Shown: positions 6,501 to 37,518 of the stretch, in pieces
Layout of the letters: each line of letters begins with the position of its first letter
Numbering within the stretch: position 1 is the stretch's first letter
Assembly: GCA_964362395.1 (NCBI GenBank)
Contig: CAYIER010000002.1
Coordinates: 1 to 38,785, forward strand
Reading direction: 5' to 3'
DNA: 38,785 bases
Source: an uncultured archaeon
Lineage (GTDB): Archaea; Iainarchaeota; Iainarchaeia; Iainarchaeales; GW2011-AR10
Position numbers and translations under genes: made by a program
The notes under the pieces: generated by a model
Told to the model about the DNA's origin: nothing
Databases searched by the model: none
The model's input: only the letters and a program-made list of their open reading frames with translations

Positions 6501-6531
6501 TCGCCAAGACCGTTTTTCAGAAAGTGGCAGA

Positions 6532-6624
6532 TATAGCAAACTGCTTATATTTTTGAACATTTTATGGCAGTTTGCTATATGCAAAGAGCAATTAAAAGTT
6601 CAATTATTTATGCTCTTTGCTATA
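6532..6624 (+). repeat. 93-nt double-hairpin repeat, copy 1
   Basis: tatagcaaactgc-N24-gcagtttgctata, then tgcaaagagc-N-gctctttgctata. 92/93 identical to 31684-31776. Confidence 0.9.
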
Positions 6625-6795
6625 GTTACACAAGACCAGGCAGTCAGACATCTTTACGAAAAAATTTTAGAAGCAATTGAAAAATCTGGACGAAAAGCAA
6701 CACTAAAAAGAATGGACACACTGCATCGTGTAAATATTCAAAGATTCAGGGAACAAATTGAATACCTAAAAAGACAAATAATGCAATCTATTTAA
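6610..6795 (+). CDS. Small hypothetical helical protein (61 aa)
   Basis: Its ATG lies inside the second hairpin of repeat copy 1. The N-terminal part of ORF-track entry 6475-6795 is repeat sequence, read in a different frame at copy 2. Confidence 0.35.
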   Translation: MLFAIVTQDQAVRHLYEKILEAIEKSGRKATLKRMDTLHRVNIQRFREQIEYLKRQIMQSI

Positions 6796-9812: not shown

Positions 9813-9868
9813 TTTTTTTATCACTTTGAATTTTTGCTTTTTTTATTGTAATCCAAATTTATATTATC

Positions 9869-9970
9869 GCCCCGTCTTCAGACGGGACACATCCGCGGTG
9901 TAACAAATTGGCAAAGAAAATATAATGATTATTCAACTGCCAATTTGTTAAAACGGACGCAAACGTTTTT
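9869..9970. repeat. Mosaic hairpin element, copy C (between tRNA-Leu and L18e)
   Basis: gccccgtc-ttca-gacgggac, then a long hairpin taacaaattggca-N24-tgccaatttgtta (13 bp perfect), then aaaacg-N8-cgtttt. Confidence 0.8.
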
Positions 9971-9984
9971 TTTATTTTTTTGAT

Positions 9985-10090
9985 TGCAGGGGGGAGGATT
10001 CGAACCCCCGAAGGCACTGAGCCACAGGATCGCTCATCTTATTTTATTGCATCTTAAGTCCTGCCCATTAAACCGCTTTGGTACCCCTGC
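9985..10090 (-). tRNA. tRNA-Leu (anticodon UAA), class II, with a ~22-nt intron at the canonical 37/38 position; no encoded CCA
   Basis: Minus strand: acceptor GCAGGGG/CCCCTGC plus A73, 3-bp D stem, anticodon stem CAGGA/TCCTG with loop CTTAAGA interrupted by an insert, long variable arm GGC-TCAGT-GCC, T arm GGGGG-TTCGAAT-CCTCC. Confidence 0.8.
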
Positions 10091-16870: not shown

Positions 16871-17382
16871 TTGTTTTCACCAAACTTTTTTTCAATTTCA
16901 GATTTCACTTTATCAAACAAAGTTACGGCATTTTCCTTCAAATGTGCCCCCTTTATCCTTTGCGCTTCAGGAAAAATTCCGGCATCATGTGGCACTTCAA
17001 TTCCCGCGTCAACTAATCCCTTCAATGCGGCAAAAACCCTTGACTTGTGCACCGGCGTCAAAAGGCCAATGTCAAGCACAGCCCGGTTTACTCCCCTGCC
17101 TTTTGCTTTCATTCCAGCAGCAAGGCCTGTCAAGTATGCCGCACTGAGGTTTCCCCTATGCATTGTCCAGCCCAATTTTGCAAGATCCATTGACTTGAAA
17201 GAAACAACCGTTTTGTCCCCCACAGGGTCAAATTCAACAATTTGGACAATCGTGCTGTTGCTTGATTTCCTTATAACCGCCCTTGGGGCACTTCCTTTCA
17301 GCAGTGAAATCCTTTTCCTGTAATTTGTCTTTTGAGAAAGCCTTCTCTTGAAAGGCATGCTGTAAGTTGAAATGTGCGTCAT
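16867..17382 (-). CDS. rpl18: 50S ribosomal protein L18
   Basis: FKRR..QKTNYRKR..LLK....R.V.RKS.N.TI.QIV motif. Confidence 0.95.
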   Translation of the reverse strand: MTHISTYSMPFKRRLSQKTNYRKRISLLKGSAPRAVIRKSSNSTIVQIVEFDPVGDKTVVSFKSMDLAKLGWTMHRGNLSAAYLTGLAAGMKAKGRGVNRAVLDIGLLTPVHKSRVFAALKGLVDAGIEVPHDAGIFPEAQRIKGAHLKENAVTLFDKVKSEIEKKFGENK

Positions 17383-17807
17383 TTTTTGGCCTCCATCACA
17401 GTGGATTCAAGGTGCTTTTTTCCCCGAAAATAACCACCCTTAACCATAAGGTATGCTTTCCTGTAAGGGATTTTCATCTTCTGTTTTCCCTGCTTTAATT
17501 CCTTAAGCTTTTTCCTCTGCGCCCGAACAGCCCTCATCCATTTTTCCTTTGGATTTGTCCGCGCCTTTGCAGTTCCCTTTCTTTTACCAAACCCTCTTTT
17601 GCTTCCCTTCTTTCTTAAAAGCGCCCTTTTCTTATTCTTGCCTGCAAGCCTTTTTTCTTTGACAATCCCTTCCTTAATCAATAACCGCAGATCCTCTTTT
17701 GTCATTGCCTCAGCCACCCTTTCATTTTCAAGCGGGCTGACCCAAATCCTGCTCTTGCCTGTTTTAAGCAATTGCCCCGCCATCCCTTTTGCTTTCTGCG
17801 CCTTCAT
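17379..17807 (-). CDS. rpl19e: 50S ribosomal protein L19e
   Basis: G.SRIWVSP......A.T.ED.R.LI.EG.....R motif. ATG at 17807 lies in the relic junction; the ORF track uses GTG at 17816. Confidence 0.9.
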   Translation of the reverse strand: MKAQKAKGMAGQLLKTGKSRIWVSPLENERVAEAMTKEDLRLLIKEGIVKEKRLAGKNKKRALLRKKGSKRGFGKRKGTAKARTNPKEKWMRAVRAQRKKLKELKQGKQKMKIPYRKAYLMVKGGYFRGKKHLESTVMEAKK

Positions 17808-17819
17808 CTTTTTCACCCG
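17803..17819. repeat. Direct repeat, proximal copy: relic of the L32e stop region overlapping the L19e start
   Basis: ttcatctttttcacccg here versus ttcatcttttccacctg at 17943-17959 (15/17), 140 nt apart, flanking hairpin element D. Confidence 0.7.
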
Positions 17820-17922
17820 CCTGCAAAATCACGCCAACAAATTGGCAATTGAACAAATTCTAGAATATTCTTTCGCCAATTTGTTGCGACACTTTCCTGC
17901 CATCCCGCTTCGCTCAATGGCA
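17818..17922. repeat. Mosaic hairpin element, copy D (between L32e and L19e)
   Basis: A degenerate caaaat-loop hairpin, then the long hairpin aacaaattggc-N28-gccaatttgtt, then gcgacactttcc, then tgccat-N-aatggca. Confidence 0.8.
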
Positions 17923-17942
17923 CTTCAAAAATCAAATTTTCA

Positions 17943-17959
17943 TTCATCTTTTCCACCTG
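17943..17959. repeat. Direct repeat, distal copy: the functional 3' end of L32e (..RWKR-TGA)
   Basis: See 17803-17819. Confidence 0.7.
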
Positions 17960-18516
17960 TTCAAAACTTTCAAGTCCAACTCGTCAGCTTTTTTCAGCAT
18001 AATTGCCCTTTTCCTTTTCCCTATCCTTGCTGCAAACCTCACTGCCACATTTTGTCCTGCAAATTGTGCAAGCTGTTCCGCCGTGGAAGCCATAACTTCA
18101 GGATAACCGCTTGGGTGCAAAAACCTTATCGCATTCGGGACACGGTAACCGATTTTCGGGTTGGCGCCATCCTCTTGCTTGAAAATAATGTCAATTCCCC
18201 GCGGGTAACGCCACTTGTTCCACTTTGCAATCGATTTCCGCCTCTTCCACCTGCCGCCAAACCTTCCCCTAAACACCGGGTGCTTGTTTCTTTTAAGCAA
18301 TTCCCTTATCTTAACAATTTTTTTGCCAACAGGCTTTTTTTTCCTCCCTTTTCTCCCCTTTTCGGCCTTTTCTGTTTTTTTCCCTTCCTTTGCCGCTGCA
18401 GGGACTTTTTTTCCTTCAACTGCCTTTTTCTGTGCCGCATGCACCTGTGGTTTCTGCTCTTTTGCGTGCATGCTTTTCCCGCCGCCGGTTTTTTTTGCTT
18501 TCTTTTCGCTTTCCAT
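17944..18516 (-). CDS. rpl32e: 50S ribosomal protein L32e (with ~60-aa Lys-rich N-terminal extension)
   Basis: HPVFRGRFG.RW.RR....KW.KWR.PRGID and AARIG.RKR motifs. Confidence 0.9.
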   Translation of the reverse strand: MESEKKAKKTGGGKSMHAKEQKPQVHAAQKKAVEGKKVPAAAKEGKKTEKAEKGRKGRKKKPVGKKIVKIRELLKRNKHPVFRGRFGGRWKRRKSIAKWNKWRYPRGIDIIFKQEDGANPKIGYRVPNAIRFLHPSGYPEVMASTAEQLAQFAGQNVAVRFAARIGKRKRAIMLKKADELDLKVLNRWKR

Positions 18517-24215: not shown

Positions 24216-24623
24216 TCATCCCCGCGCCGTGATTGCAGTGCTTGACTTTGTTGCGCCGATCCCTGCCTTTCCGTGCGACAGCCTCTTTCGGGTCAAAACA
24301 AATTCGCCCAAATAGTGGCCAAGCATTTTATCCATGACCGACATAACCTGGAATTCCTTCCCATTATAAACGGCAAACTTCAGCCCGACCATCTTTGGCA
24401 GAACCGGGAAATCCCTCAAATGCGTCCGAATGATTTTTGGCTCATGCCCCTGCTGCTTTTGCAAAAACGCGCTGCCGATTGCCCCCAAAAAACCCTTGCT
24501 GTAATTTCCCCTAAGCAAAGACCTCTTTATCCTTGAGCCTGCAATCACTGCAAACTGTGCCTCGCTCATTGCAACAAGCTCTTCCATTGTTTTTCCGCGA
24601 AAAGTAAATTCTTTTTTTACCAT
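24216..24623 (-). CDS. rps19: 30S ribosomal protein S19
   Basis: IRTH.RD..VLP.MVG....VYNGKEF..V.....M.GHYLGEF..TRK...HG motif. Confidence 0.95.
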   Translation of the reverse strand: MVKKEFTFRGKTMEELVAMSEAQFAVIAGSRIKRSLLRGNYSKGFLGAIGSAFLQKQQGHEPKIIRTHLRDFPVLPKMVGLKFAVYNGKEFQVMSVMDKMLGHYLGEFVLTRKRLSHGKAGIGATKSSTAITARG

Positions 24624-24633
24624 AACATCACAA

Positions 24634-24750
24634 CAACCGCAAAATCGGCACCAAATTGACAGTTGAACAATTCTGGATATTTTCTTTTGCCAATTCGGTG
24701 TGACACTTTTGTCCCGTCTGCGACGGGACTTCCGGCAAATAATTCATTGC
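24634..24750. repeat. Mosaic hairpin element, copy E (between L2 and S19)
   Basis: A truncated caaaat-loop hairpin, then the long hairpin caccaaattgaca-N26-tgccaattcggtg, then gtgacactttt, then gtcccgtc-tgc-gacgggac. About 85% identical to copy F over ~95 nt. Confidence 0.85.
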
Positions 24751-24769
24751 AATTTCCATAAAAACACAA

Positions 24770-25966: not shown

Positions 25967-25973
25967 ACATTTA

Positions 25974-26005
25974 CCACTTGCCCTCTAAAGCCTTTATCGC
26001 GTCCT
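25974..26005. repeat. Direct repeat, proximal copy: relic of the L4 3' end (DAIKALEGKW-TAA) 4 nt upstream of the L23 ATG
   Basis: ccacttgccctctaaagcctttatcgcgtcct here versus 26087-26118 ccattttccctctaaagcctttatcgcgtcct (30/32), 113 nt apart. Confidence 0.85.
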
Positions 26006-26086
26006 TACCGCCTGCAAAATCAGGCGACACTTTTTCCCCATTCTTCGAATGGGGATTCTGCGCACAAATAAAAAACATCTCCATCA
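26006..26086. repeat. Mosaic hairpin element, copy H (between L4 and L23)
   Basis: cgcctg-caaaat-caggcg (26009-26026), then acacttttt, then ccccatt-cttcg-aatgggg (26036-26054). Bracketed by the 32-nt direct repeat. Confidence 0.85.
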
Positions 26087-26890
26087 CCATTTTCCCTCTA
26101 AAGCCTTTATCGCGTCCTCGCTCCACAAAGTGAGCCTTCCCGGGACAGCGCCCGGCGCAAGGAGCTTTGCATTGACGTTTTTCACATTCACAACCTCTAC
26201 ACCCTCAATGTTTCGCGCCGCCTTAAAAATCTTCGCCGAATCACTCACAACAATCAAAACACTCTTTGCCTTCTTGTACCGCCTTCCCCTCTTCTTTCCC
26301 TTTCCAGCCCTTCTCTTCCGCGCAGCCTTTGCCCTATCAACATCCAAAATCAACGAAAGCCTCTCAAGCGCCAAAACCACATTTTTTGTCCTGTCAAGCG
26401 CCTCGATTTTTTTCTCAACAATAACTGGAAAAACAAGTTTGTCCGAAATTTTGTGCCCCCTCTTTCGCACCAGTTCCGCAACCGCTGTCGCCGCAATCGC
26501 GCTTCTTGTCGCCTTCTGCTTTTCCTTGCGGTTAATCTTTTCCTTAAGGATTTTTTCAACCTTTGGCGGATGTGCCGCCGGGCCACCAACCGCCCAAGGA
26601 ACAAGCGCTACTTTTCCCGAAGAAATATATCTCCTGTTCCGCATCCTTGGCAGCCGTGCCTTTTCAATGTTGATTGTCCTGTGCATCTGCGGCTTTCGCC
26701 TTGCACCAATATAGCGCGCAGTGTAATTCCTTCCCGCGCTCTTCTTTGTTCCCTTTGGCTGCATTGCCGCGCTCTCAATTGACAACACGGCCCGCTTTAT
26801 CAGGTTTCCATCAATCGGCTCGCTGAAAACACCCGGCAGTTCAATTTCCCGGACTTTCTGCCCCTCAATGCTCAACACGCTTGCTTTCAT
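26084..26890 (-). CDS. rpl4: 50S ribosomal protein L4
   Basis: Typical archaeal L4 (...GRNYTARYIGARR..Q......GGPAAHPPK...) located between L3 and L23. Confidence 0.95.
   Translation of the reverse strand: MKASVLSIEGQKVREIELPGVFSEPIDGNLIKRAVLSIESAAMQPKGTKKSAGRNYTARYIGARRKPQMHRTINIEKARLPRMRNRRYISSGKVALVPWAVGGPAAHPPKVEKILKEKINRKEKQKATRSAIAATAVAELVRKRGHKISDKLVFPVIVEKKIEALDRTKNVVLALERLSLILDVDRAKAARKRRAGKGKKRGRRYKKAKSVLIVVSDSAKIFKAARNIEGVEVVNVKNVNAKLLAPGAVPGRLTLWSEDAIKALEGKW
26087..26118. repeat. Direct repeat, distal copy: the functional 3' end of L4 (..EDAIKALEGKW-TGA)
   Basis: See 25974-26005. Confidence 0.85.
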
Positions 26891-26907
26891 AAAAAATCAA
26901 CCGGATT

Positions 26908-26928
26908 ATTTTTTCCCGCCACCCATTG
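26908..26928. repeat. Direct repeat, proximal copy: relic of the L3 3' end (MGGGKK-TAA) 15 nt upstream of the L4 ATG
   Basis: attttttcccgccacccattg here versus 27018-27038 attttttcccgccgcccattg (20/21), 110 nt apart. Confidence 0.85.
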
Positions 26929-27017
26929 CGGCCGCGTGCAAAATCACGCGACACTTTTGTGCCATTTCGCTTTGCTCAATGGCAATGTCATTGCTCGCCA
27001 ATAATTTGTGACTGTTC
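26929..27017. repeat. Mosaic hairpin element, copy G (between L3 and L4)
   Basis: cgcgtg-caaaat-cacgcg (26933-26950), then acacttttg, then tgccatt-tcgctttgctc-aatggca (26960-26984). Bracketed by the 21-nt direct repeat. Confidence 0.85.
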
Positions 27018-28167
27018 ATTTTTTCCCGCCGCCCATTGTAGCTTCCTTTATTTCATCCGCAACGCTTTTCTTTTCAACCTTTGCCTCTTTCTTTACAACA
27101 ATCCGCTGTGCCCGGACTTCGTCTCCTGCAACCGCTTCCTTCTCCTTCCTCTTTACCCCAAGAACAGAAAGCTCCGCGACATTAAACAAACCCTTGTAAC
27201 CAACCCTGATCGGGTCCCTTAAAGCAACAGCCCTCTTTACCGGCCCAGGCGTGCTTCCGCCAAGCAAAATAAACTGGTTCTTTATCACACCATAGCCTTC
27301 AAAACCGTGCGGCACATTTATTTCCGCAGGATTATTTGAAATCCTCAAAAGCCTCTTGTTGAGTTCCGTCCTGGACTGATACCCCATCTGGCCAGGCCTT
27401 GCAACAAACCTCATAACCGTTGAAGGATTCCACGGCCCAATACTTCCAACAACCCTTCTCTTCTTTGCCTTTCGCCTGTGCATCTTTACACCAAACCTTT
27501 TGATGACACCGGTAAAGCCCTTTCCGGCATCCACTGCCTTCACGTCAACAAACTGTTTTTCCTCAAACACCTCGTTGACTGAAAGATCCTTGCCAAGCTT
27601 TTCCTTTGCAAACTTCCACTGGTCGGCAACGCTTCCGCCAACAAAAACCTCAAACACATCCGCCACCTTTTTCCCAAAACCAAGCAAACCCGGCCTAGTG
27701 CTGCACAAAAGCTTTACTTTAACGATTTTGTCAACCTGCTTTTCCAAATCAGAAACCGTAGCATAACTTTTTTCGCCCCCTTCTTTCCCGCCCTTTTTCT
27801 TATTGCTCTTTCTCTTAAAATCAGGGTGGCGCTTCCTGAAAAACTTGTCAGGCTTCTCAACAGTCGCTTCGCCCAAAACACGCAGCGCGCCCTGCTCTTT
27901 CGTATAAGCCCTAATGCCAAAAACAGACAGCGGAGGGCACTCAATAACCGTCAAAGGAATCACGACCTGTTGCCCAAAACTCGTGGCCTTCTCCTGCTTA
28001 TTAACCGCAACCGCATGAACCATCCCAGCCTTATAGCCGACAAAATTCAACGGCTTTGCTTTCTGCCTGGAAAGCACATTGTCTGACCTAAAAGTAGCCA
28101 GTTCCCTTGCAGCCCTCTTTCTTGGGTAAAATGCCAGTGAGCCAGACCTTGGCTTGTGCCGAGTCAT
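27016..28167 (-). CDS. rpl3: 50S ribosomal protein L3
   Basis: PR.GSLAFYPRKRA, F.GYKAGM.H and GKGF.GV.KR.G....RRK motifs. First gene of the L3-L4-L23-L2 cluster. Confidence 0.95.
   Translation of the reverse strand: MTRHKPRSGSLAFYPRKRAARELATFRSDNVLSRQKAKPLNFVGYKAGMVHAVAVNKQEKATSFGQQVVIPLTVIECPPLSVFGIRAYTKEQGALRVLGEATVEKPDKFFRKRHPDFKRKSNKKKGGKEGGEKSYATVSDLEKQVDKIVKVKLLCSTRPGLLGFGKKVADVFEVFVGGSVADQWKFAKEKLGKDLSVNEVFEEKQFVDVKAVDAGKGFTGVIKRFGVKMHRRKAKKRRVVGSIGPWNPSTVMRFVARPGQMGYQSRTELNKRLLRISNNPAEINVPHGFEGYGVIKNQFILLGGSTPGPVKRAVALRDPIRVGYKGLFNVAELSVLGVKRKEKEAVAGDEVRAQRIVVKKEAKVEKKSVADEIKEATMGGGKK
27018..27038. repeat. Direct repeat, distal copy: the functional 3' end of L3 (..ATMGGGKK-TGA)
   Basis: See 26908-26928. 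Confidence 0.85.
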
Positions 28168-28324: not shown

Positions 28325-28393
28325 CGCCGACAAAATTCGGCGGTGCTTTCCTGCCATTTCGCTTCGCTCAATGGCAATGCGCCTTGTAGGCGC
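28325..28393. repeat. Mosaic hairpin element, copy I (upstream of the L3 operon)
   Basis: cgccga-caaaat-tcggcg, then gtgctttcc, then tgccatt-tcgcttcgctc-aatggca, then gcgcct-tgt-aggcgc. Confidence 0.8.
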
Positions 28394-31447: not shown

Positions 31448-31542
31448 TGTATACAAATTGCGGCACACCAAGTATTTAAATGTTACTTTTTAACGAGAAT
31501 TAGTGAATTGTATGTAAATTGTATGTAAAATCCGGCTGCTTC

Positions 31543-31635
31543 AACCGCAAAATCGGCACCAAATTGACAGTTGAATAATTATGACTAATTTCTTTTGCCA
31601 ATTTGGTGTGGCGCTTTCACCTGCTAAAGCGGGAC
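31543..31635. repeat. Mosaic hairpin element, copy F (upstream of the surface protein gene)
   Basis: aaccgcaaaatcgg, then the long hairpin caccaaattgaca-N26-tgccaatttggtg, then a degenerate terminal hairpin. Close paralog of copy E. Confidence 0.85.
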
Positions 31636-31658: not shown

Positions 31659-31683
31659 CGCCCAAAATGGCTGCGTGTGCATC

Positions 31684-31776
31684 TATAGCAAACTGCTTAT
31701 ATTTTTGAACATTTTATGGCAGTTTGCCATATGCAAAGAGCAATTAAAAGTTCAATTATTTATGCTCTTTGCTATA
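31684..31776 (+). repeat. 93-nt double-hairpin repeat, copy 2
   Basis: 92/93 identical to 6532-6624. The single difference is at 31728. Confidence 0.9.
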
Positions 31777-31816
31777 ATTTGCGGAGCCAATTTGTGGCAG
31801 CATTTTTTCAGTCATG

Positions 31817-32344: not shown

Positions 32345-33799
32345 TTACCCTTTAATATTCCCAATCGGCCGCAGCCCAGCCACTTTTTTGCTTATCCCAA
32401 GGTTATGCATTGTGTCCACGACCTCGCTGATGCTCTTGTACGCGCCGCCTGCCTCTTCAGCCAGGCCATCTTTTGACGCGGCCTTCACTATTATCCCTTT
32501 TTTTTCCATTGACTTTTGCAGCGAATCCGCCGAAAACAGCTTCTTTGCCTTCTCTCTGCTCATTGTCCGCCCGCTCCCGTGCATTGTCGAGCCAAAAGTA
32601 TCTGCCATTGCCTTTTGTGTCCCAACGCACAAAAAGCTGCCTGTCTCCATGCTGCCACCAACTATAACCGGCTGCCCAACCTCTTTGAAAACACCCTGCA
32701 ATTCAGCGTGCCCCGGCGGAAAACTCCGCGTCGCGCCCTTTCTATGCACAATCAGTTCCTTCATAACTCCGTCCACTTTGTGCTTTTCCACTTTTGCAAT
32801 GTTGTGCGCAACATCATACACCAAATCCATTCCAAGGCTCTCAGCGCTCTGCGAAAACACCTGCGAAAAACTTTCCCGAATCCTATGCATTATGACCTGC
32901 CTGTTCACAAACGCGCTGTTTGCAGCGCAAACCATTGCCGCATAATAATCCGCGCCCTCTTTGCTCCTGTACGGAACGCACGCAAGCTGCCGGTCCTTTA
33001 CCTCTATTTTGTATTTTTTCATTGCCGGCTCAAAAATGCCAAGGTAATCGGTTGCAGTCTGGTGGCCAAAGCCACGCGAACCGCAATGCACCATTATTAC
33101 GACCTGTTGGGGCAGCGCAATTCCAAGCGCTTTTGCTGTTTTTTTGTCAAAAACCGCGCTCTCATCTGCGACCTGTATTTCAAGGTAATGGTTCCCGCTG
33201 CCAAGCGTCCCAATCTGGCTAATGCCCCTCTCAATCGCCTTTTTTGTCACCTTGCCGGAATCCGCCCCCTTGATGCAGCCATGCTCTTCAATTGCCTTCA
33301 AATCCTTTTCCCAGCCAAAGCCCTTTTCCACGCACCACTTTGCGCCAATCTCAGTCATTTCGCGGAATTCTTTTTCACTTATTTTTATAAAACCCTTTCT
33401 TCCAACGCCAACTGGCACTTTGTCAAAAAGCAAATTTACAAGCTGTCTTAATTTTGGTTGTACCTCTTTAAATGTAAGGTTAGTGGTGACTAGACGCATC
33501 CCACAATTTACGTCAAAACCTACGATTCCAGGGCTTATTACGCCTTCCTCCAAATCAAAAGCCGCAACGCCTCCGACCGGGCTTCCATAACCCCAGTGCG
33601 CGTCTGGCATCGCCATTGCATACTTTTGTATCCCTGGCATGCACGCCATGTTTGTGGCCTGCTCAAAAACGCCTTCATCCATTTCGCGGAACAATTTGTC
33701 TGAAGCAAAAATCCTTGCAGGAACCCTCATGCCTTCCTTTTCAGTAGGCGGGATTTCCCAGATGTACTCCGAAACCTTGTCTGCCTTGAATTTTCCCAT
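32345..33799 (-). CDS. rtcB: RNA-splicing ligase RtcB (tRNA ligase)
   Basis: MPDAHWGYG, GFDVNCGMRL, GSGNHYLE, HCGSRGFGHQ and HGSGR motifs. GGAGGTGA Shine-Dalgarno sequence upstream. Confidence 0.95.
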   Translation of the reverse strand: MGKFKADKVSEYIWEIPPTEKEGMRVPARIFASDKLFREMDEGVFEQATNMACMPGIQKYAMAMPDAHWGYGSPVGGVAAFDLEEGVISPGIVGFDVNCGMRLVTTNLTFKEVQPKLRQLVNLLFDKVPVGVGRKGFIKISEKEFREMTEIGAKWCVEKGFGWEKDLKAIEEHGCIKGADSGKVTKKAIERGISQIGTLGSGNHYLEIQVADESAVFDKKTAKALGIALPQQVVIMVHCGSRGFGHQTATDYLGIFEPAMKKYKIEVKDRQLACVPYRSKEGADYYAAMVCAANSAFVNRQVIMHRIRESFSQVFSQSAESLGMDLVYDVAHNIAKVEKHKVDGVMKELIVHRKGATRSFPPGHAELQGVFKEVGQPVIVGGSMETGSFLCVGTQKAMADTFGSTMHGSGRTMSREKAKKLFSADSLQKSMEKKGIIVKAASKDGLAEEAGGAYKSISEVVDTMHNLGISKKVAGLRPIGNIKG

Positions 33800-33949
33800 T
33801 TTGCTTTTTCACCTCCCCTTGCACCGGAAACCCGGTGTGTCTCTTTAAATGGATTTTTAACCCACTTTCAACAAAAACTATCTGTGCAAACAATTAAAAC
33901 CATTAATCCCAATTTGGCTTCTTTGCATGGCTACCTTTGTGCAGATAGC

Positions 33950-34042
33950 TATAGCAAACTGCATTTGTTTTTGAACTATTGAGACAGTTTGCTATATGCA
34001 AAAAGCAATTAATTTGTTCAATTATCTATGCTCTTTGCTATA
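33950..34042 (+). repeat. 93-nt double-hairpin repeat, copy 3 (diverged, ~80% identical, same length)
   Basis: Shares the termini tatagcaaactg...ctctttgctata and both stems. Differences are concentrated in the loops. Confidence 0.8.
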
Positions 34043-34208
34043 TATAATTTCACACAAAAGGGCTCAAAACGCAAATTTTACAGACTGGCATTCAAATCAA
34101 TTGTTTCAAAAAAACGTTTCAACGGCGAAGGCAACCATTATTTTGAGCTATCAATCAATTCAATACCAGATATTGCCAAAATCGTAAATTTACCAAGATT
34201 ATTTTGAA

Positions 34209-35023: not shown

Positions 35024-35410
35024 TTAAAAATCAACCAGTTGTAGGTTGTCAATTTTTCCAAAATGCTTTTTATTCAAGGTAAAAAGCTTCTCGTTTTTTG
35101 CCAGGCAAATCCCTGCAATTGTTTCGTCATATTTTCCTATGGGGGTCCCTTTCTTCTTTTGCATTGCTTTTACTTGTACAACGTTGCTTAATTCCATTGA
35201 AGTGTAATCATAGATTTTAAATTTTTGCAGCATGAGTTTGCCTTTGTTGATAGAATCTTCCGTTGAAAAATATAGTCCGACTAAAAATTCTTCCGCATTC
35301 AAAATCGTGGTTGCAAGAGAATCAAATGTTTCAAGCCACTTGATTTTTTCAATTATTTTTTCATTGCCTTTGGAGAATGCAATTAAAACATCGGTGTCTA
35401 TGACAACCAT
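35024..35410 (-). CDS. vapC: PIN-domain toxin VapC
   Basis: VVIDTDVLI start, then conserved acidic positions (..NAEEF.., ..YDETIA..) and LFTLNKKHF. Overlaps the upstream antitoxin gene. Confidence 0.85.
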   Translation of the reverse strand: MVVIDTDVLIAFSKGNEKIIEKIKWLETFDSLATTILNAEEFLVGLYFSTEDSINKGKLMLQKFKIYDYTSMELSNVVQVKAMQKKKGTPIGKYDETIAGICLAKNEKLFTLNKKHFGKIDNLQLVDF

Positions 35411-35646
35411 AATTTATCAAGCCTTTTATCCCTTAATTTGTCAAGTTTATCTGTTTTTTTCCTGTAGCCTGTAATTGCATTTTCAACTTTTTTTGCTTCC
35501 CTTTCGGATAAAAAGCCTGCAAATTCCAAAATGCTTGTTTTCTCCTTGTCCGCAAGCCGCTCAAACAGGTCAGAAAAACTTTCTTCAGTTTTTTTTACTT
35601 TAACCAATTTATTATAAACTGTGTCTTTTATAGTCAGTGTTTTCAT
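35398..35646 (-). CDS. vapB: VapB-type antitoxin (archaeal UPF0330/COG1753-like)
   Basis: MKTLTIKDTVYNKLVKVKKTEESFSDLFERL pattern. 13-nt overlap with vapC. Confidence 0.75.
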   Translation of the reverse strand: MKTLTIKDTVYNKLVKVKKTEESFSDLFERLADKEKTSILEFAGFLSEREAKKVENAITGYRKKTDKLDKLRDKRLDKLWLS

Positions 35647-35744: not shown

Positions 35745-35875
35745 GCACCATAGAAGATGGTGCACGTATGCGTTGTAAACCAACCGCGAAATCGGTTGAC
35801 GCTTTAGTGTCCTCTTCGAGGACAGTCCCGCTGCAAGCGGGACAAATTCGTCGCCAGAATTTGCTGGCGGGCGCA
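35745..35875. repeat. Mosaic hairpin element, copy J (between archease and vapB); collinear with copy A
   Basis: Hairpins: gcaccat-agaag-atggtgc, caaccg-cgaaat-cggttg, gtcctc-ttc-gaggac, gtcccgc-tgcaa-gcgggac, aaattc-gtcgcca-gaattt (alternative fold cgccag-aatttg-ctggcg). Confidence 0.8.
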
Positions 35876-35884
35876 AAAGTTTTT

Positions 35885-36310
35885 TTAAACATCAATCACA
35901 ACAGTTGCCTTAAATTTTCCTTTCAGTTTTTCAATTTTAAACAAATGCTTTGTGGCCGCCTTGACATCGCTTCGAAGTCGCTTGTCAGGATACTTTATAT
36001 GCTCTCCAAAACATTTTGCACTTAACCCAAACTCTTTTTCTTTTTTTATTTTTGTTTCAAAGCGCGAAAACACAATTTCCTGCACGTCTTTCACAAAAAC
36101 AAGCTCTGACAGCCAGCCAAAAAGCAGTTCTTCAAGCGTTGCGGCAGATAGCCGGATTTCCACCTTGGTTTTTGGCCCGATTTTTTTTGTGTCAGCCATT
36201 ATCTCAAAAAGTGCTTCCGCGGCGTTCTCAAACAGCTCTTCCACTGTTTTCCCGTAAGCCTCAAATGCCGACTCAGCAATTGCCGTGTCCTCCAAAAATA
36301 GGTACTTCAT
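35885..36310 (-). CDS. Archease (RtcB activator)
   Basis: YLFLEDTAIAESAFEAYGKTVEELFENAAEALF start and VKAATKHLFKIE....KATVVIDV C-terminus. Confidence 0.9.
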   Translation of the reverse strand: MKYLFLEDTAIAESAFEAYGKTVEELFENAAEALFEIMADTKKIGPKTKVEIRLSAATLEELLFGWLSELVFVKDVQEIVFSRFETKIKKEKEFGLSAKCFGEHIKYPDKRLRSDVKAATKHLFKIEKLKGKFKATVVIDV

Positions 36311-37342: not shown

Positions 37343-37366
37343 TTCCCAAAACCCTTGCGTGAGTTT

Positions 37367-37449
37367 TAACAAATTGGCAAAAGAAATCCCATAAATTATT
37401 CACTTGCCAATTTGTTACGCCGCATATATGCCCCGCCTGAAGGCGAGAC
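37367..37449. repeat. Mosaic hairpin element, copy K (between EF-1alpha and S10)
   Basis: Long hairpin taacaaattggcaa-N23-ttgccaatttgtta (14 bp perfect), then gccccgcc-tgaa-ggcgagac. Confidence 0.8.
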
Positions 37450-37518
37450 AATAATACCCCAATATATTATAATGGAATAAAAAAAATTTTTGGGAAAAAA
37501 CCCAAAATAGTAACAGCA

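Follow-up and report, generated by a model that had tools for sequence, protein, structure and literature searches.

How can a piece of DNA enter the place where the stop codon of one essential ribosomal-protein gene meets the start codon of the next, and leave both genes intact? The question is raised by the junction of the L32e and L19e genes in a 38,785-nt stretch of DNA (contig CAYIER010000002.1; hereafter the window) from an uncultured archaeon, in which a hairpin-bearing sequence, element D, lies between two similar 17-nt sequences, one at the end of L32e and the other at the start of L19e. The window is an archaeal cluster of ribosomal-protein genes, read on the minus strand; the closest public genomes are metagenome-assembled genomes of uncultured Iainarchaeota/Diapherotrites (DPANN), and the window sequence itself is present in groundwater metagenomes. 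The evidence described below makes it very probable that the 17-nt repeat is a target-site duplication, produced when a mobile hairpin element inserted into the stop/start overlap of the two genes.

The 17-nt repeat and its counterparts in relatives

On the plus strand, ttcatctttttcacccg (17803-17819) and ttcatcttttccacctg (17943-17959) match at 15 of 17 positions and start 140 nt apart, as a reading made from the sequence alone (the sequence-only reading) had described. The features of the junction, in gene order, are as follows.

17944-18516, minus strand: L32e (eL32) gene, 190 aa, with a Lys/Ala-rich N-terminal extension (from the list of open reading frames, ORFs, and PF01655)
17943-17959, minus strand: distal copy, in gene sense CAGGTGGAAAAGATGAA, comprising the L32e codons for N R W K R, the TGA stop (17946-17944) and one further nucleotide (from the sequence and the conserved C-terminus)
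17820-17942, minus strand: composite hairpin element D, 123 nt, between the copies (from repeat and fold analysis)
17803-17819, minus strand: proximal copy, in gene sense CGGGTGAAAAAGATGAA, comprising a Shine-Dalgarno (SD) sequence GGTGA (17817-17813), the spacer AAAAG, the L19e ATG (17807-17805) and two further nucleotides (collinear with the empty sites of relatives L021 and L014 and of the X12 contig)
17379-17807, minus strand: L19e (eL19) gene, start ATG at 17807 (from homologue comparison)

The distal copy also holds a vestigial L19e start, an ATG at 17947-17945 that overlaps the L32e TGA. The duplicated core comprises 14-15 nt (GGTGRAAAAGATGAA), the outer 2-3 nt being shared with the 3' stem of the Q hairpin that ends the element. 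In the proximal copy a G-to-A change turns GGTGG into the consensus SD GGTGA, and the same change supplies the stop of an insert-spanning ORF. SD-like GGTGA or GGAGG at -9 to -13 is typical of the operon in the window, and the GTG at 17816 is part of the SD GGTGA.

Both gene boundaries are well anchored. The N-termini of L19e homologues all fit M-K-x-x-K-A-K (MKAQKAK), which fixes the start at ATG 17807, where it had been placed beforehand. The C-terminus ..LNRWKK/R is conserved in the L32e homologues P0002-P0011, and the distal copy is therefore the true end of L32e, again as proposed. A recent read-through of an ancestral AGG-TGA stop as the source of the RWKR tail (compare ..INR followed by the stop in L006) was ruled out by the conservation of NRWKK/R in 10 homologues. 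Template and variable repeats of a diversity-generating retroelement were likewise ruled out: the mismatches are not confined to adenine, and repeats of this length are much too short.

We regard comparison with relatives as the decisive kind of evidence, for their empty sites can be read collinearly through the distal and then the proximal copy. The relatives fall into a distant set (L001-L009; L5 identity 61-68%), closer genomes reached through L32e homologues (L19e identity to the window 88.5% in L010 and 88.8% in L011), and a relative assembled as contigs from the metagenome run X12, whose L19e is about 91% identical in nucleotides. Among relatives sharing the L32e end NRWKK/R, L32e and L19e in the empty state share 4 nt (ATGA or GTGA) or lie 0-1 nt apart:

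L021: AACAGGTGGAAAAAATGAAGGCACAA (tabulated for the junction as CTTAACAGGTGGAAAAAATGAAGGCACAAAAAG), ATGA overlap
L020: same arrangement as L021, ATGA overlap
L014 and L015: ..GGTGGAAGAAGTGAAAGCACAA, GTGA overlap
L022 and L023: GTGA overlap
L016 and L017: ..AAAAAATAAATGAAGG, TAA then ATG
X12 contig: joins 17807 to 17951 with 8 letters between, GTTTTGAACAGGTGGAAGAAGTAATATGAAGGC, that is NRWKK-TAA-T-ATG

Empty L32e-L19e sites are thus known from six lineages, each holding exactly one copy of the repeat. L021 is nearly base-for-base collinear with the distal copy of the window, then with the proximal copy and then with the start of L19e. Long L32e-L19e spacers occur only in those relatives that carry hairpin elements. 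L011 has the same element at the same site with GGTGGAAAAGATGA on both sides, extending to a 16/17 match whose score none of 2000 shuffles reached, and L010 has other modules (P+P+Q) there, flanked by GGTGGAAGAA[A/G]T[G/A]A. L019 carries about 200 nt of inserted sequence that extends L32e in frame by a 60-aa tail (..STEFAVGGKK at the stop), with an ATGA overlap with L19e. In the distant relatives L32e ends ..LNP or ..INR at the stop; the L32e-L19e spacer measures 5-26 nt in L002, L003 and L005-L009, the junction is unresolved in L001, and L004 ends inside L32e. A motif and covariance-model scan of L001-L009 found none of the element motifs.

Hairpin modules and the other junctions of the operon

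Element D, proposed earlier as a hairpin element between the two copies, proves to belong to a repeated hairpin family: its modules recur at 10 or more other places in the window. From its 5' end in gene sense it comprises:

17923-17942, minus strand: 20-nt 5' segment TGAAAATTTGATTTTTGAAG, common to L011 only, with no relation to other copies or to the 5' end of L19e
17898-17922, minus strand: A hairpin (TGCCAT-TGAGCGAAGCGGG-ATGGCA), with other copies at 26960-26983 and 28352-28375 and at the L19e-L18 junction of the X12 relative
17886-17897, minus strand: linker GGAAAGTGTCGC, the conserved lead-in to Q (AAAGYGTC), from comparison of Q copies
17836-17885, minus strand: R palindrome, 50 nt (AACAAATTGGCG..TGCCAATTTGTT), a repeat in its own right that lies within the 5' stem of the Q hairpin
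17817-17835, minus strand: damaged Q hairpin (GGCGTG-ATTTTG-CAGGCG-G), with a covariance-model match at 17816-17843 (20.8 bits)

Because L011 has two intact Q hairpins at this place, we read the Q of the window as a deletion chimera of Q1 and Q2. Over the window as a whole the count is at least 11 Q hairpins, 3 A hairpins and 5 R palindromes, in units of 50-125 nt; the further R palindromes lie at 24634-24709, 31542-31617, about 9915-9970 and about 37380-37430, the last two inverted. Over 17828-17915 the contigs of several groundwater runs are 4-5 times deeper than over the flanks, which marks the modules as multi-copy. At 5 of 6 pairs the Q stems of different copies vary in a compensatory way, with the loop RWTTTG and the lead-in AAAG(Y)GT conserved; the copies were gathered with a hairpin-finding pattern, and their high percentage of paired bases is partly a product of that selection. 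The Q covariance model matches only the window, L010, L011, L014, L016 and L019, and by this measure the family is confined to this Iainarchaeota (Diapherotrites) subclade. Of two metagenome-wide pattern scans, for the Q core and for the P+Q core, one gave no locus and the other a single one, the L7Ae locus of the same species. Rfam at gathering thresholds reported only a tRNA in the window, and at permissive E-values only chance-level matches (E above 1) in 17700-18050; inspection by eye for box C/D, H/ACA and k-turn RNA motifs found none that fitted.

The minus-strand gene order is L3 (28167-27016), L4, L23, L2, S19, L22, S3, L29, SUI1, Rpp29, S17, L14, L24, S4e, L5, S14, S8, L6, L32e (18516-17944), L19e (17807-17379), L18, S5, L30, L15 and SecY, followed by more genes. 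Junctions are mostly tight, from a 4-nt overlap to a 14-nt spacer, and the four long ones within the operon (117-146 nt) are L3-L4, L4-L23, L2-S19 and L32e-L19e. The three besides L32e-L19e also hold hairpin elements, two of them with stronger duplications, and parallel insertions were found in relatives:

26891-27038, minus strand: L3-L4, A+Q element with the 23-nt repeat CAATGGGYGGCGGGAAAAAATRA (27016-27038 and 26906-26928), 21/23 identical
25967-26118, minus strand: L4-L23, element with a 35-nt repeat of the L4 C-terminus (26084-26118 and 25971-26005), 32/35 identical
24624-24769, minus strand: L2-S19, P+R+Q element, no significant flanking repeat
L014, S17-L14: GGGCATTGAAATGA, a 61-nt P+Q element, then GGGTGTTGAAATGA-AGGCAAT, with a 12/14 duplication; the window and L016 have an ATGA overlap here
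X12 relative, L19e-L18: two contigs that overlap on 17378-17394 (17 nt, GGAGGCCAAAAAATGAC) lie on either side of an A..Q element; the window has ATGA
X12 relative, S17-L14: about 112 nt inserted, the insert sequence itself not seen; the window has ATGA

The L3-L4 genes overlap as ATGA or GTGA in all seven relatives examined, and the L4-L23 site is empty in the X12 relative (TGA-ATAGC-ATG). The L2-S19 element is probably old, to judge from what reads as a decayed version of it in L014. In all, five junctions of a single operon differ, filled versus empty, between the window and the X12 relative at a divergence of about 10%, which points to recent mobility of the element family.

The insertions share an asymmetric anatomy. 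Each duplication begins 14-35 nt upstream of its end, usually at a G-rich, SD-like motif, and ends 0-2 nt past the upstream stop codon. The 3' end of the element is always the Q hairpin plus G, abutting the proximal copy with an ambiguity of 1-3 nt (GG). Between the distal copy and the first conserved hairpin, on the 5' side, come 12-28 nt that resemble neither other copies nor the beginning of the downstream gene; the possibility that these segments are decayed starts of the downstream gene, which would mean much longer duplications, was tested and no relation was found. In two cases the proximal copy departs from the distal one by a difference that makes GGTG, L014 S17-L14 (CA to TG) and window L3-L4 (C to T), and such GGTG/GGTGA changes would fit optimisation of the SD after the genes were uncoupled. 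The duplication lengths are roughly 14 plus multiples of about 10, in too few events to judge helical phasing. Three duplications have TGA in the distal and TAA in the proximal copy (26084-26086/25971-25973; 27016-27018/26906-26908; L010 3103-3105/3204-3206). This suggests that the ancestral stop was TAA, as it is at the X12 empty site. Every element can be parsed as starting with TGA, and the insert may itself have supplied that stop codon; TGA is in any case the commonest stop in the window (23 of 40).

Further occurrences of the modules, and some neighbouring features, are recorded here. Mosaic clusters of at least five P and Q hairpins lie at 2140-2270 (L24e-ndk) and 35780-35870 (downstream of archease, with one inverted unit at 35844-35871 on the plus strand), and recall bacterial BIMEs. 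A composite of R palindrome and P hairpin (about 9860-9970), with an inverted twin at about 37348-37456, stands directly downstream of the Rfam tRNA (9985-10090, minus strand; 106 nt, 45 bits), which ARAGORN does not report and which is presumably an intron-containing archaeal tRNA. A separate, partly palindromic repeat of 101 nt occurs at 6527-6627, 31679-31779 and 33945-34045 (96% and 63% identity to the first copy) and shows no relationship to the modules A, P, Q and R. RtcB ligase (32345-33799) and archease are encoded about 2 kb apart (further coordinates recorded with them are 35885-36310 and 35024-35646), with Pfam assignments for RtcB and archease only; adjoining archease is what we take, from its sequences and without Pfam, to be a VapBC-like pair. 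The Lys/Ala-rich extension of L32e measures about 70 aa, homologues have similar, poorly conserved ones, and L23 and L3 are extended too.

Insertion, a possible translational relay and the competing explanations

The evidence shows the following course of events. In the ancestor, L32e stopped where L19e started, the two codons overlapping or abutting (..AAC AGG TGG AAA AGA TGA, with ATG AAG GCG.. starting inside), and the L19e SD fell among the final codons of L32e. A short element, non-coding and composed of hairpin modules, entered just after the L32e stop and left some 14-17 nt of the junction on both sides, such that the upstream copy retained the L32e C-terminus and stop and the downstream copy the L19e SD, spacer and ATG. 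Both essential genes survived because each side kept a copy of the junction signals; the overlap otherwise offers no permissive position. The later change of GGTGG to GGTGA in the proximal copy would have improved the SD and also closed an ORF, on which ribosomes could relay translational coupling from L32e to L19e. Mobilisation would depend on a trans-acting factor encoded outside the window. Given a 3' end that is precise (the Q hairpin and a G, sharing a GG microhomology with the target), the variable 5' end with its 12-28 nt of unrelated sequence and the variable duplication of 14-35 nt, we favour polar copy-in, by target-primed synthesis or template switching, over cut-and-paste of a fixed-end element, a preference drawn from only 5-6 events.

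The strongest competitor, a real possibility though the less probable account, dispenses with a dedicated transposase: the element would have been copied from another junction by template switching during replication or by microhomology-mediated repair, or a filled allele would have been imported by recombination from a related strain. A polymerase would leave the target at the stop codon, copy the donor element and return upstream at a GG microhomology, thereby duplicating a variable interval. The range of duplication lengths (14-35 nt), the GG microhomology with which the element ends (..GCGG) and the proximal copy begins, and the 12-28 nt of unrelated sequence on the 5' side all agree with this, as does the lack of a visible transposase among the 10 non-ribosomal ORFs of the window; repetitive extragenic palindromic (REP) sequences of the CGTC type have been reported to lack a dedicated transposase (PMC3733652), and a sequence shared by L010 and the X12 relative, GAAGAAGTAATATG, suggests allele exchange. 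Against it stand the clustering of three to four independent events at 14-17 nt, which resembles an enzyme-defined stagger, and the recurrence in every case of a boundary right after the stop codon, although the events to judge by are very few.

A second possibility is that the spacer encodes a genuine small protein of 44 aa (MNENLIFEVPLSEAGWQ..) coupled to its neighbours on both sides, the repeats being coupling signals and not scars. The ORF at this junction is the following:

17813-17947, minus strand: insert-spanning ORF of 44 codons plus TGA, from the vestigial ATG to 5 nt before the L19e ATG

Such ORFs cross seven of nine element-bearing spacers, starting a few nucleotides from the upstream stop, usually at the leftover ATG, and ending at most 15 nt from the downstream start. 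Shuffling gives an expectation of 0.02-0.62 per spacer and a joint P of about 3e-4, in a test that treats related, module-sharing spacers as independent and so overstates their independence, a reservation that belongs with those listed below. Those of 37-52 codons lie at 17813-17947, 25971-26090, 26906-27019, 24617-24769 and 2123-2281, all on the minus strand, and some spacer ORFs are reported by gene callers as hypothetical proteins, for example a 34-aa gene in L010. Modules are also read in frame as tails of ribosomal proteins: hairpin modules occupy the 3' ends of the L32e, L15 and L24 genes (L019 690-917 and 3480-3570; L016 3600-3712), and the resulting C-terminal tails in L019 and L016 read ..STEFAVGGKK, ..NDLAAGTKVPTDLAVEVDKK and ..PAEFAAG..PANFAAEVK, each up to its stop. 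A gene for a small protein is nevertheless very improbable. Between the window and L011 the frame shifts after the palindrome, neither reading frame nor peptide being conserved at these orthologous loci, and the L011 ORF comes to its stop 67 nt short of the L19e start; two frames are used to read Q, depending on the locus; some modules lie near promoters or in inverted orientation; the stems co-vary at the nucleotide level; and the whole segment is absent from the relative that is about 91% identical. The ORFs may instead reflect tolerance of, or selection for, the passage of ribosomes that relay coupling.

Weakest of all, and in our judgement scarcely credible, is the view that both 17-mers are ribosome-binding-site (RBS) contexts (GGTG, A-rich spacer, ATG) alike by chance or convergence on a biased strand, with no duplication: 15/17 matches at 60-250 nt spacing do form 11 clusters in the window, three of them the operon-junction repeats and eight unrelated (at least 15/17), and the RBS of the unrelated S28e gene reads GGGTGAAAAAAGATG, nearly the same string, but the alignment score of the two L32e-L19e flanks was reached by only 2 of 2000 shuffles, the L011 flanks of the same element are 14/15 identical, the 23 and 35 nt duplicated at other junctions are clearly coding and not RBS sequence, and the single copy at the empty sites of relatives already contradicts it. 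The sequence-only reading had foreseen that 15/17 similarity might be common in T-rich sequence; such matches are indeed not rare on the T-rich strand, but placement, shuffles and empty sites favour duplication. What makes the repeat significant is its placement, its copies marking the stop of the upstream gene and the start of the downstream one, 15/17 by itself being unremarkable; a repeat that abuts both is unlikely to have arisen by chance.

Several observations weigh against target-site duplication by a mobile element. RBS convergence explains part of the similarity of the 17-mers, any two RBS regions of the genome sharing some. The closest empty site is TAA-T-ATG, not ATGA; the ATGA overlap that had been proposed as ancestral is found in relatives, but for the immediate ancestor it would follow only from what the proximal copy shows (GATGAAGG) and from relatives further removed. 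Duplication lengths are uneven (14, 15-17, 17, 23 and 35 nt), and the L2-S19 and L24e-ndk spacers carry elements without a significant flanking repeat in shuffle-tested alignments. Among assembler contigs of seven runs, no empty allele was seen alongside the filled one in the same population. Finally, Pfam searches of the 10 non-ribosomal ORFs of the 38.8-kb contig (which include TrmB, RtcB and archease) found no transposase, REP-associated tyrosine transposase (RAYT) or other Y1/HUH protein, reverse transcriptase or Cas1.

Beyond target-site duplication as such, one may speculate that the elements represent a hitherto undescribed archaeal (DPANN) class of mobile hairpins that spreads by polar, priming-type copying (precise 3' Q end with GG microhomology, ragged 5' end bearing extra unrelated sequence, duplications of 14-35 nt), lands just after stop codons including those in 4-nt overlaps, and is free of stops in two frames, hence being translated as coupling-relay ORFs or absorbed as C-terminal tails of ribosomal proteins; in this full form we consider the proposal rather unlikely. 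The archaeal ribosomal-protein operon is usually held untouchable on account of its overlapping, coupled genes, and here, in a reduced DPANN genome, a selfish repeat family has entered the overlaps repeatedly, which is possible because each insertion duplicates the stop/SD/start signal. The locus thus offers a worked example of how overlapping genes can be separated without loss of function. It fixes the L19e start and would correct likely mis-annotations (a GTG start and several spurious hypothetical proteins of 34-51 aa), and the insertions provide presence/absence markers that distinguish genomes about 10% diverged. Their footprints, in duplication length and junction asymmetry, bear on how transposase-less, REP-like repeats move, and the in-frame copies in relatives suggest one source of lineage-specific C-terminal tails in archaeal ribosomal proteins.

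Comparison with known repeat systems

We file the family as a small palindromic mobile repeat outside any named family, because the defining features of CGTC-family REPs and the terminal inverted repeats (TIRs) required of MITEs (miniature inverted-repeat transposable elements) are lacking; it appears to be undescribed. Its nearest described analogues are bacterial REP/BIME elements, above all the CGTC/TGTC-tagged REPs without a transposase, then MITEs and, where copies are read in frame, the palindromic elements of Rickettsia. A search of the literature for archaeal or DPANN palindromic repeats with long duplications found only bacterial REP and MITE work.

The resemblance to REP, BIME and REPIN sequences lies in short GC-rich stem-loops, present in many copies and in mosaic clusters, mostly downstream of genes within operons, and the units agree with the usual description of a REP as an extragenic GC-rich palindrome of 20-40 nt, mostly downstream of ORFs and often clustered. 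The host is a DPANN archaeon, REP families having been reported from 8 bacterial phyla, and we know of no REP described with flanking target duplications of 14-35 nt. REPs of the GTAG type are associated with a RAYT, whereas those tagged with CGTC or TGTC are reported to have no associated transposase; the terminal tag is unpaired, the stem measures 8-9 bp and has A-T at its first two positions, the loop counts 4-5 nt, and CGTC families carry a CCA tail (Di Nocera et al. 2013, PMC3733652). Our family shares with them the compensatory variation of stems, the absence of an associated transposase among the 10 ORFs scanned and the location of some units inside ORFs, and in 11 of 13 Q copies the hairpin is preceded by (C/T)GTC. 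In Q, however, the tag has its C paired, and the Q stem of 6 bp starts with C-G, encloses a loop of 6 nt (RWTTTG) and is followed by a G tail in place of CCA.

With MITEs such as Correia/NEMIS, ERIC and the SM elements of Sulfolobus, the family has in common small size (under about 500 bp), many copies, non-coding character with no conserved ORF, target duplication, probable co-transcription in operons and nesting, and its R module has terminal inverted arms of 12-13 nt. It departs from them in that the composite element has no TIRs, its 5' ends differing and not being complementary to the 3' Q end, in the contrast of a precise 3' with a variable 5' end, and, to judge by the few events, in duplications that are long and of variable length instead of fixed at 2-10 bp; nor was a parent insertion sequence (IS) for the hairpin family found within the window. 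The Rickettsia palindromic elements (RPE) also stay open in frame and can be translated within host proteins, as in the L019 and L016 tails. They are unrelated in sequence, and the present elements differ in occupying gene ends and junctions, not protein cores, and in having flanking duplications.

Casposons make target duplications of 14-15 bp, those of the IS1634 group of IS are long and variable, and target-primed insertions of the LINE/SINE type combine a variable target-site duplication with a precise 3' and a ragged 5' end. The hairpin family lacks the TIRs, Cas1, transposase and reverse transcriptase of these systems, as far as the window extends, and has no poly-A or other tail. It resembles casposons in its modal duplication of 14-17 nt, and target-primed retrotransposition in the variable length of its duplications, its precise 3' end and its ragged 5' end.

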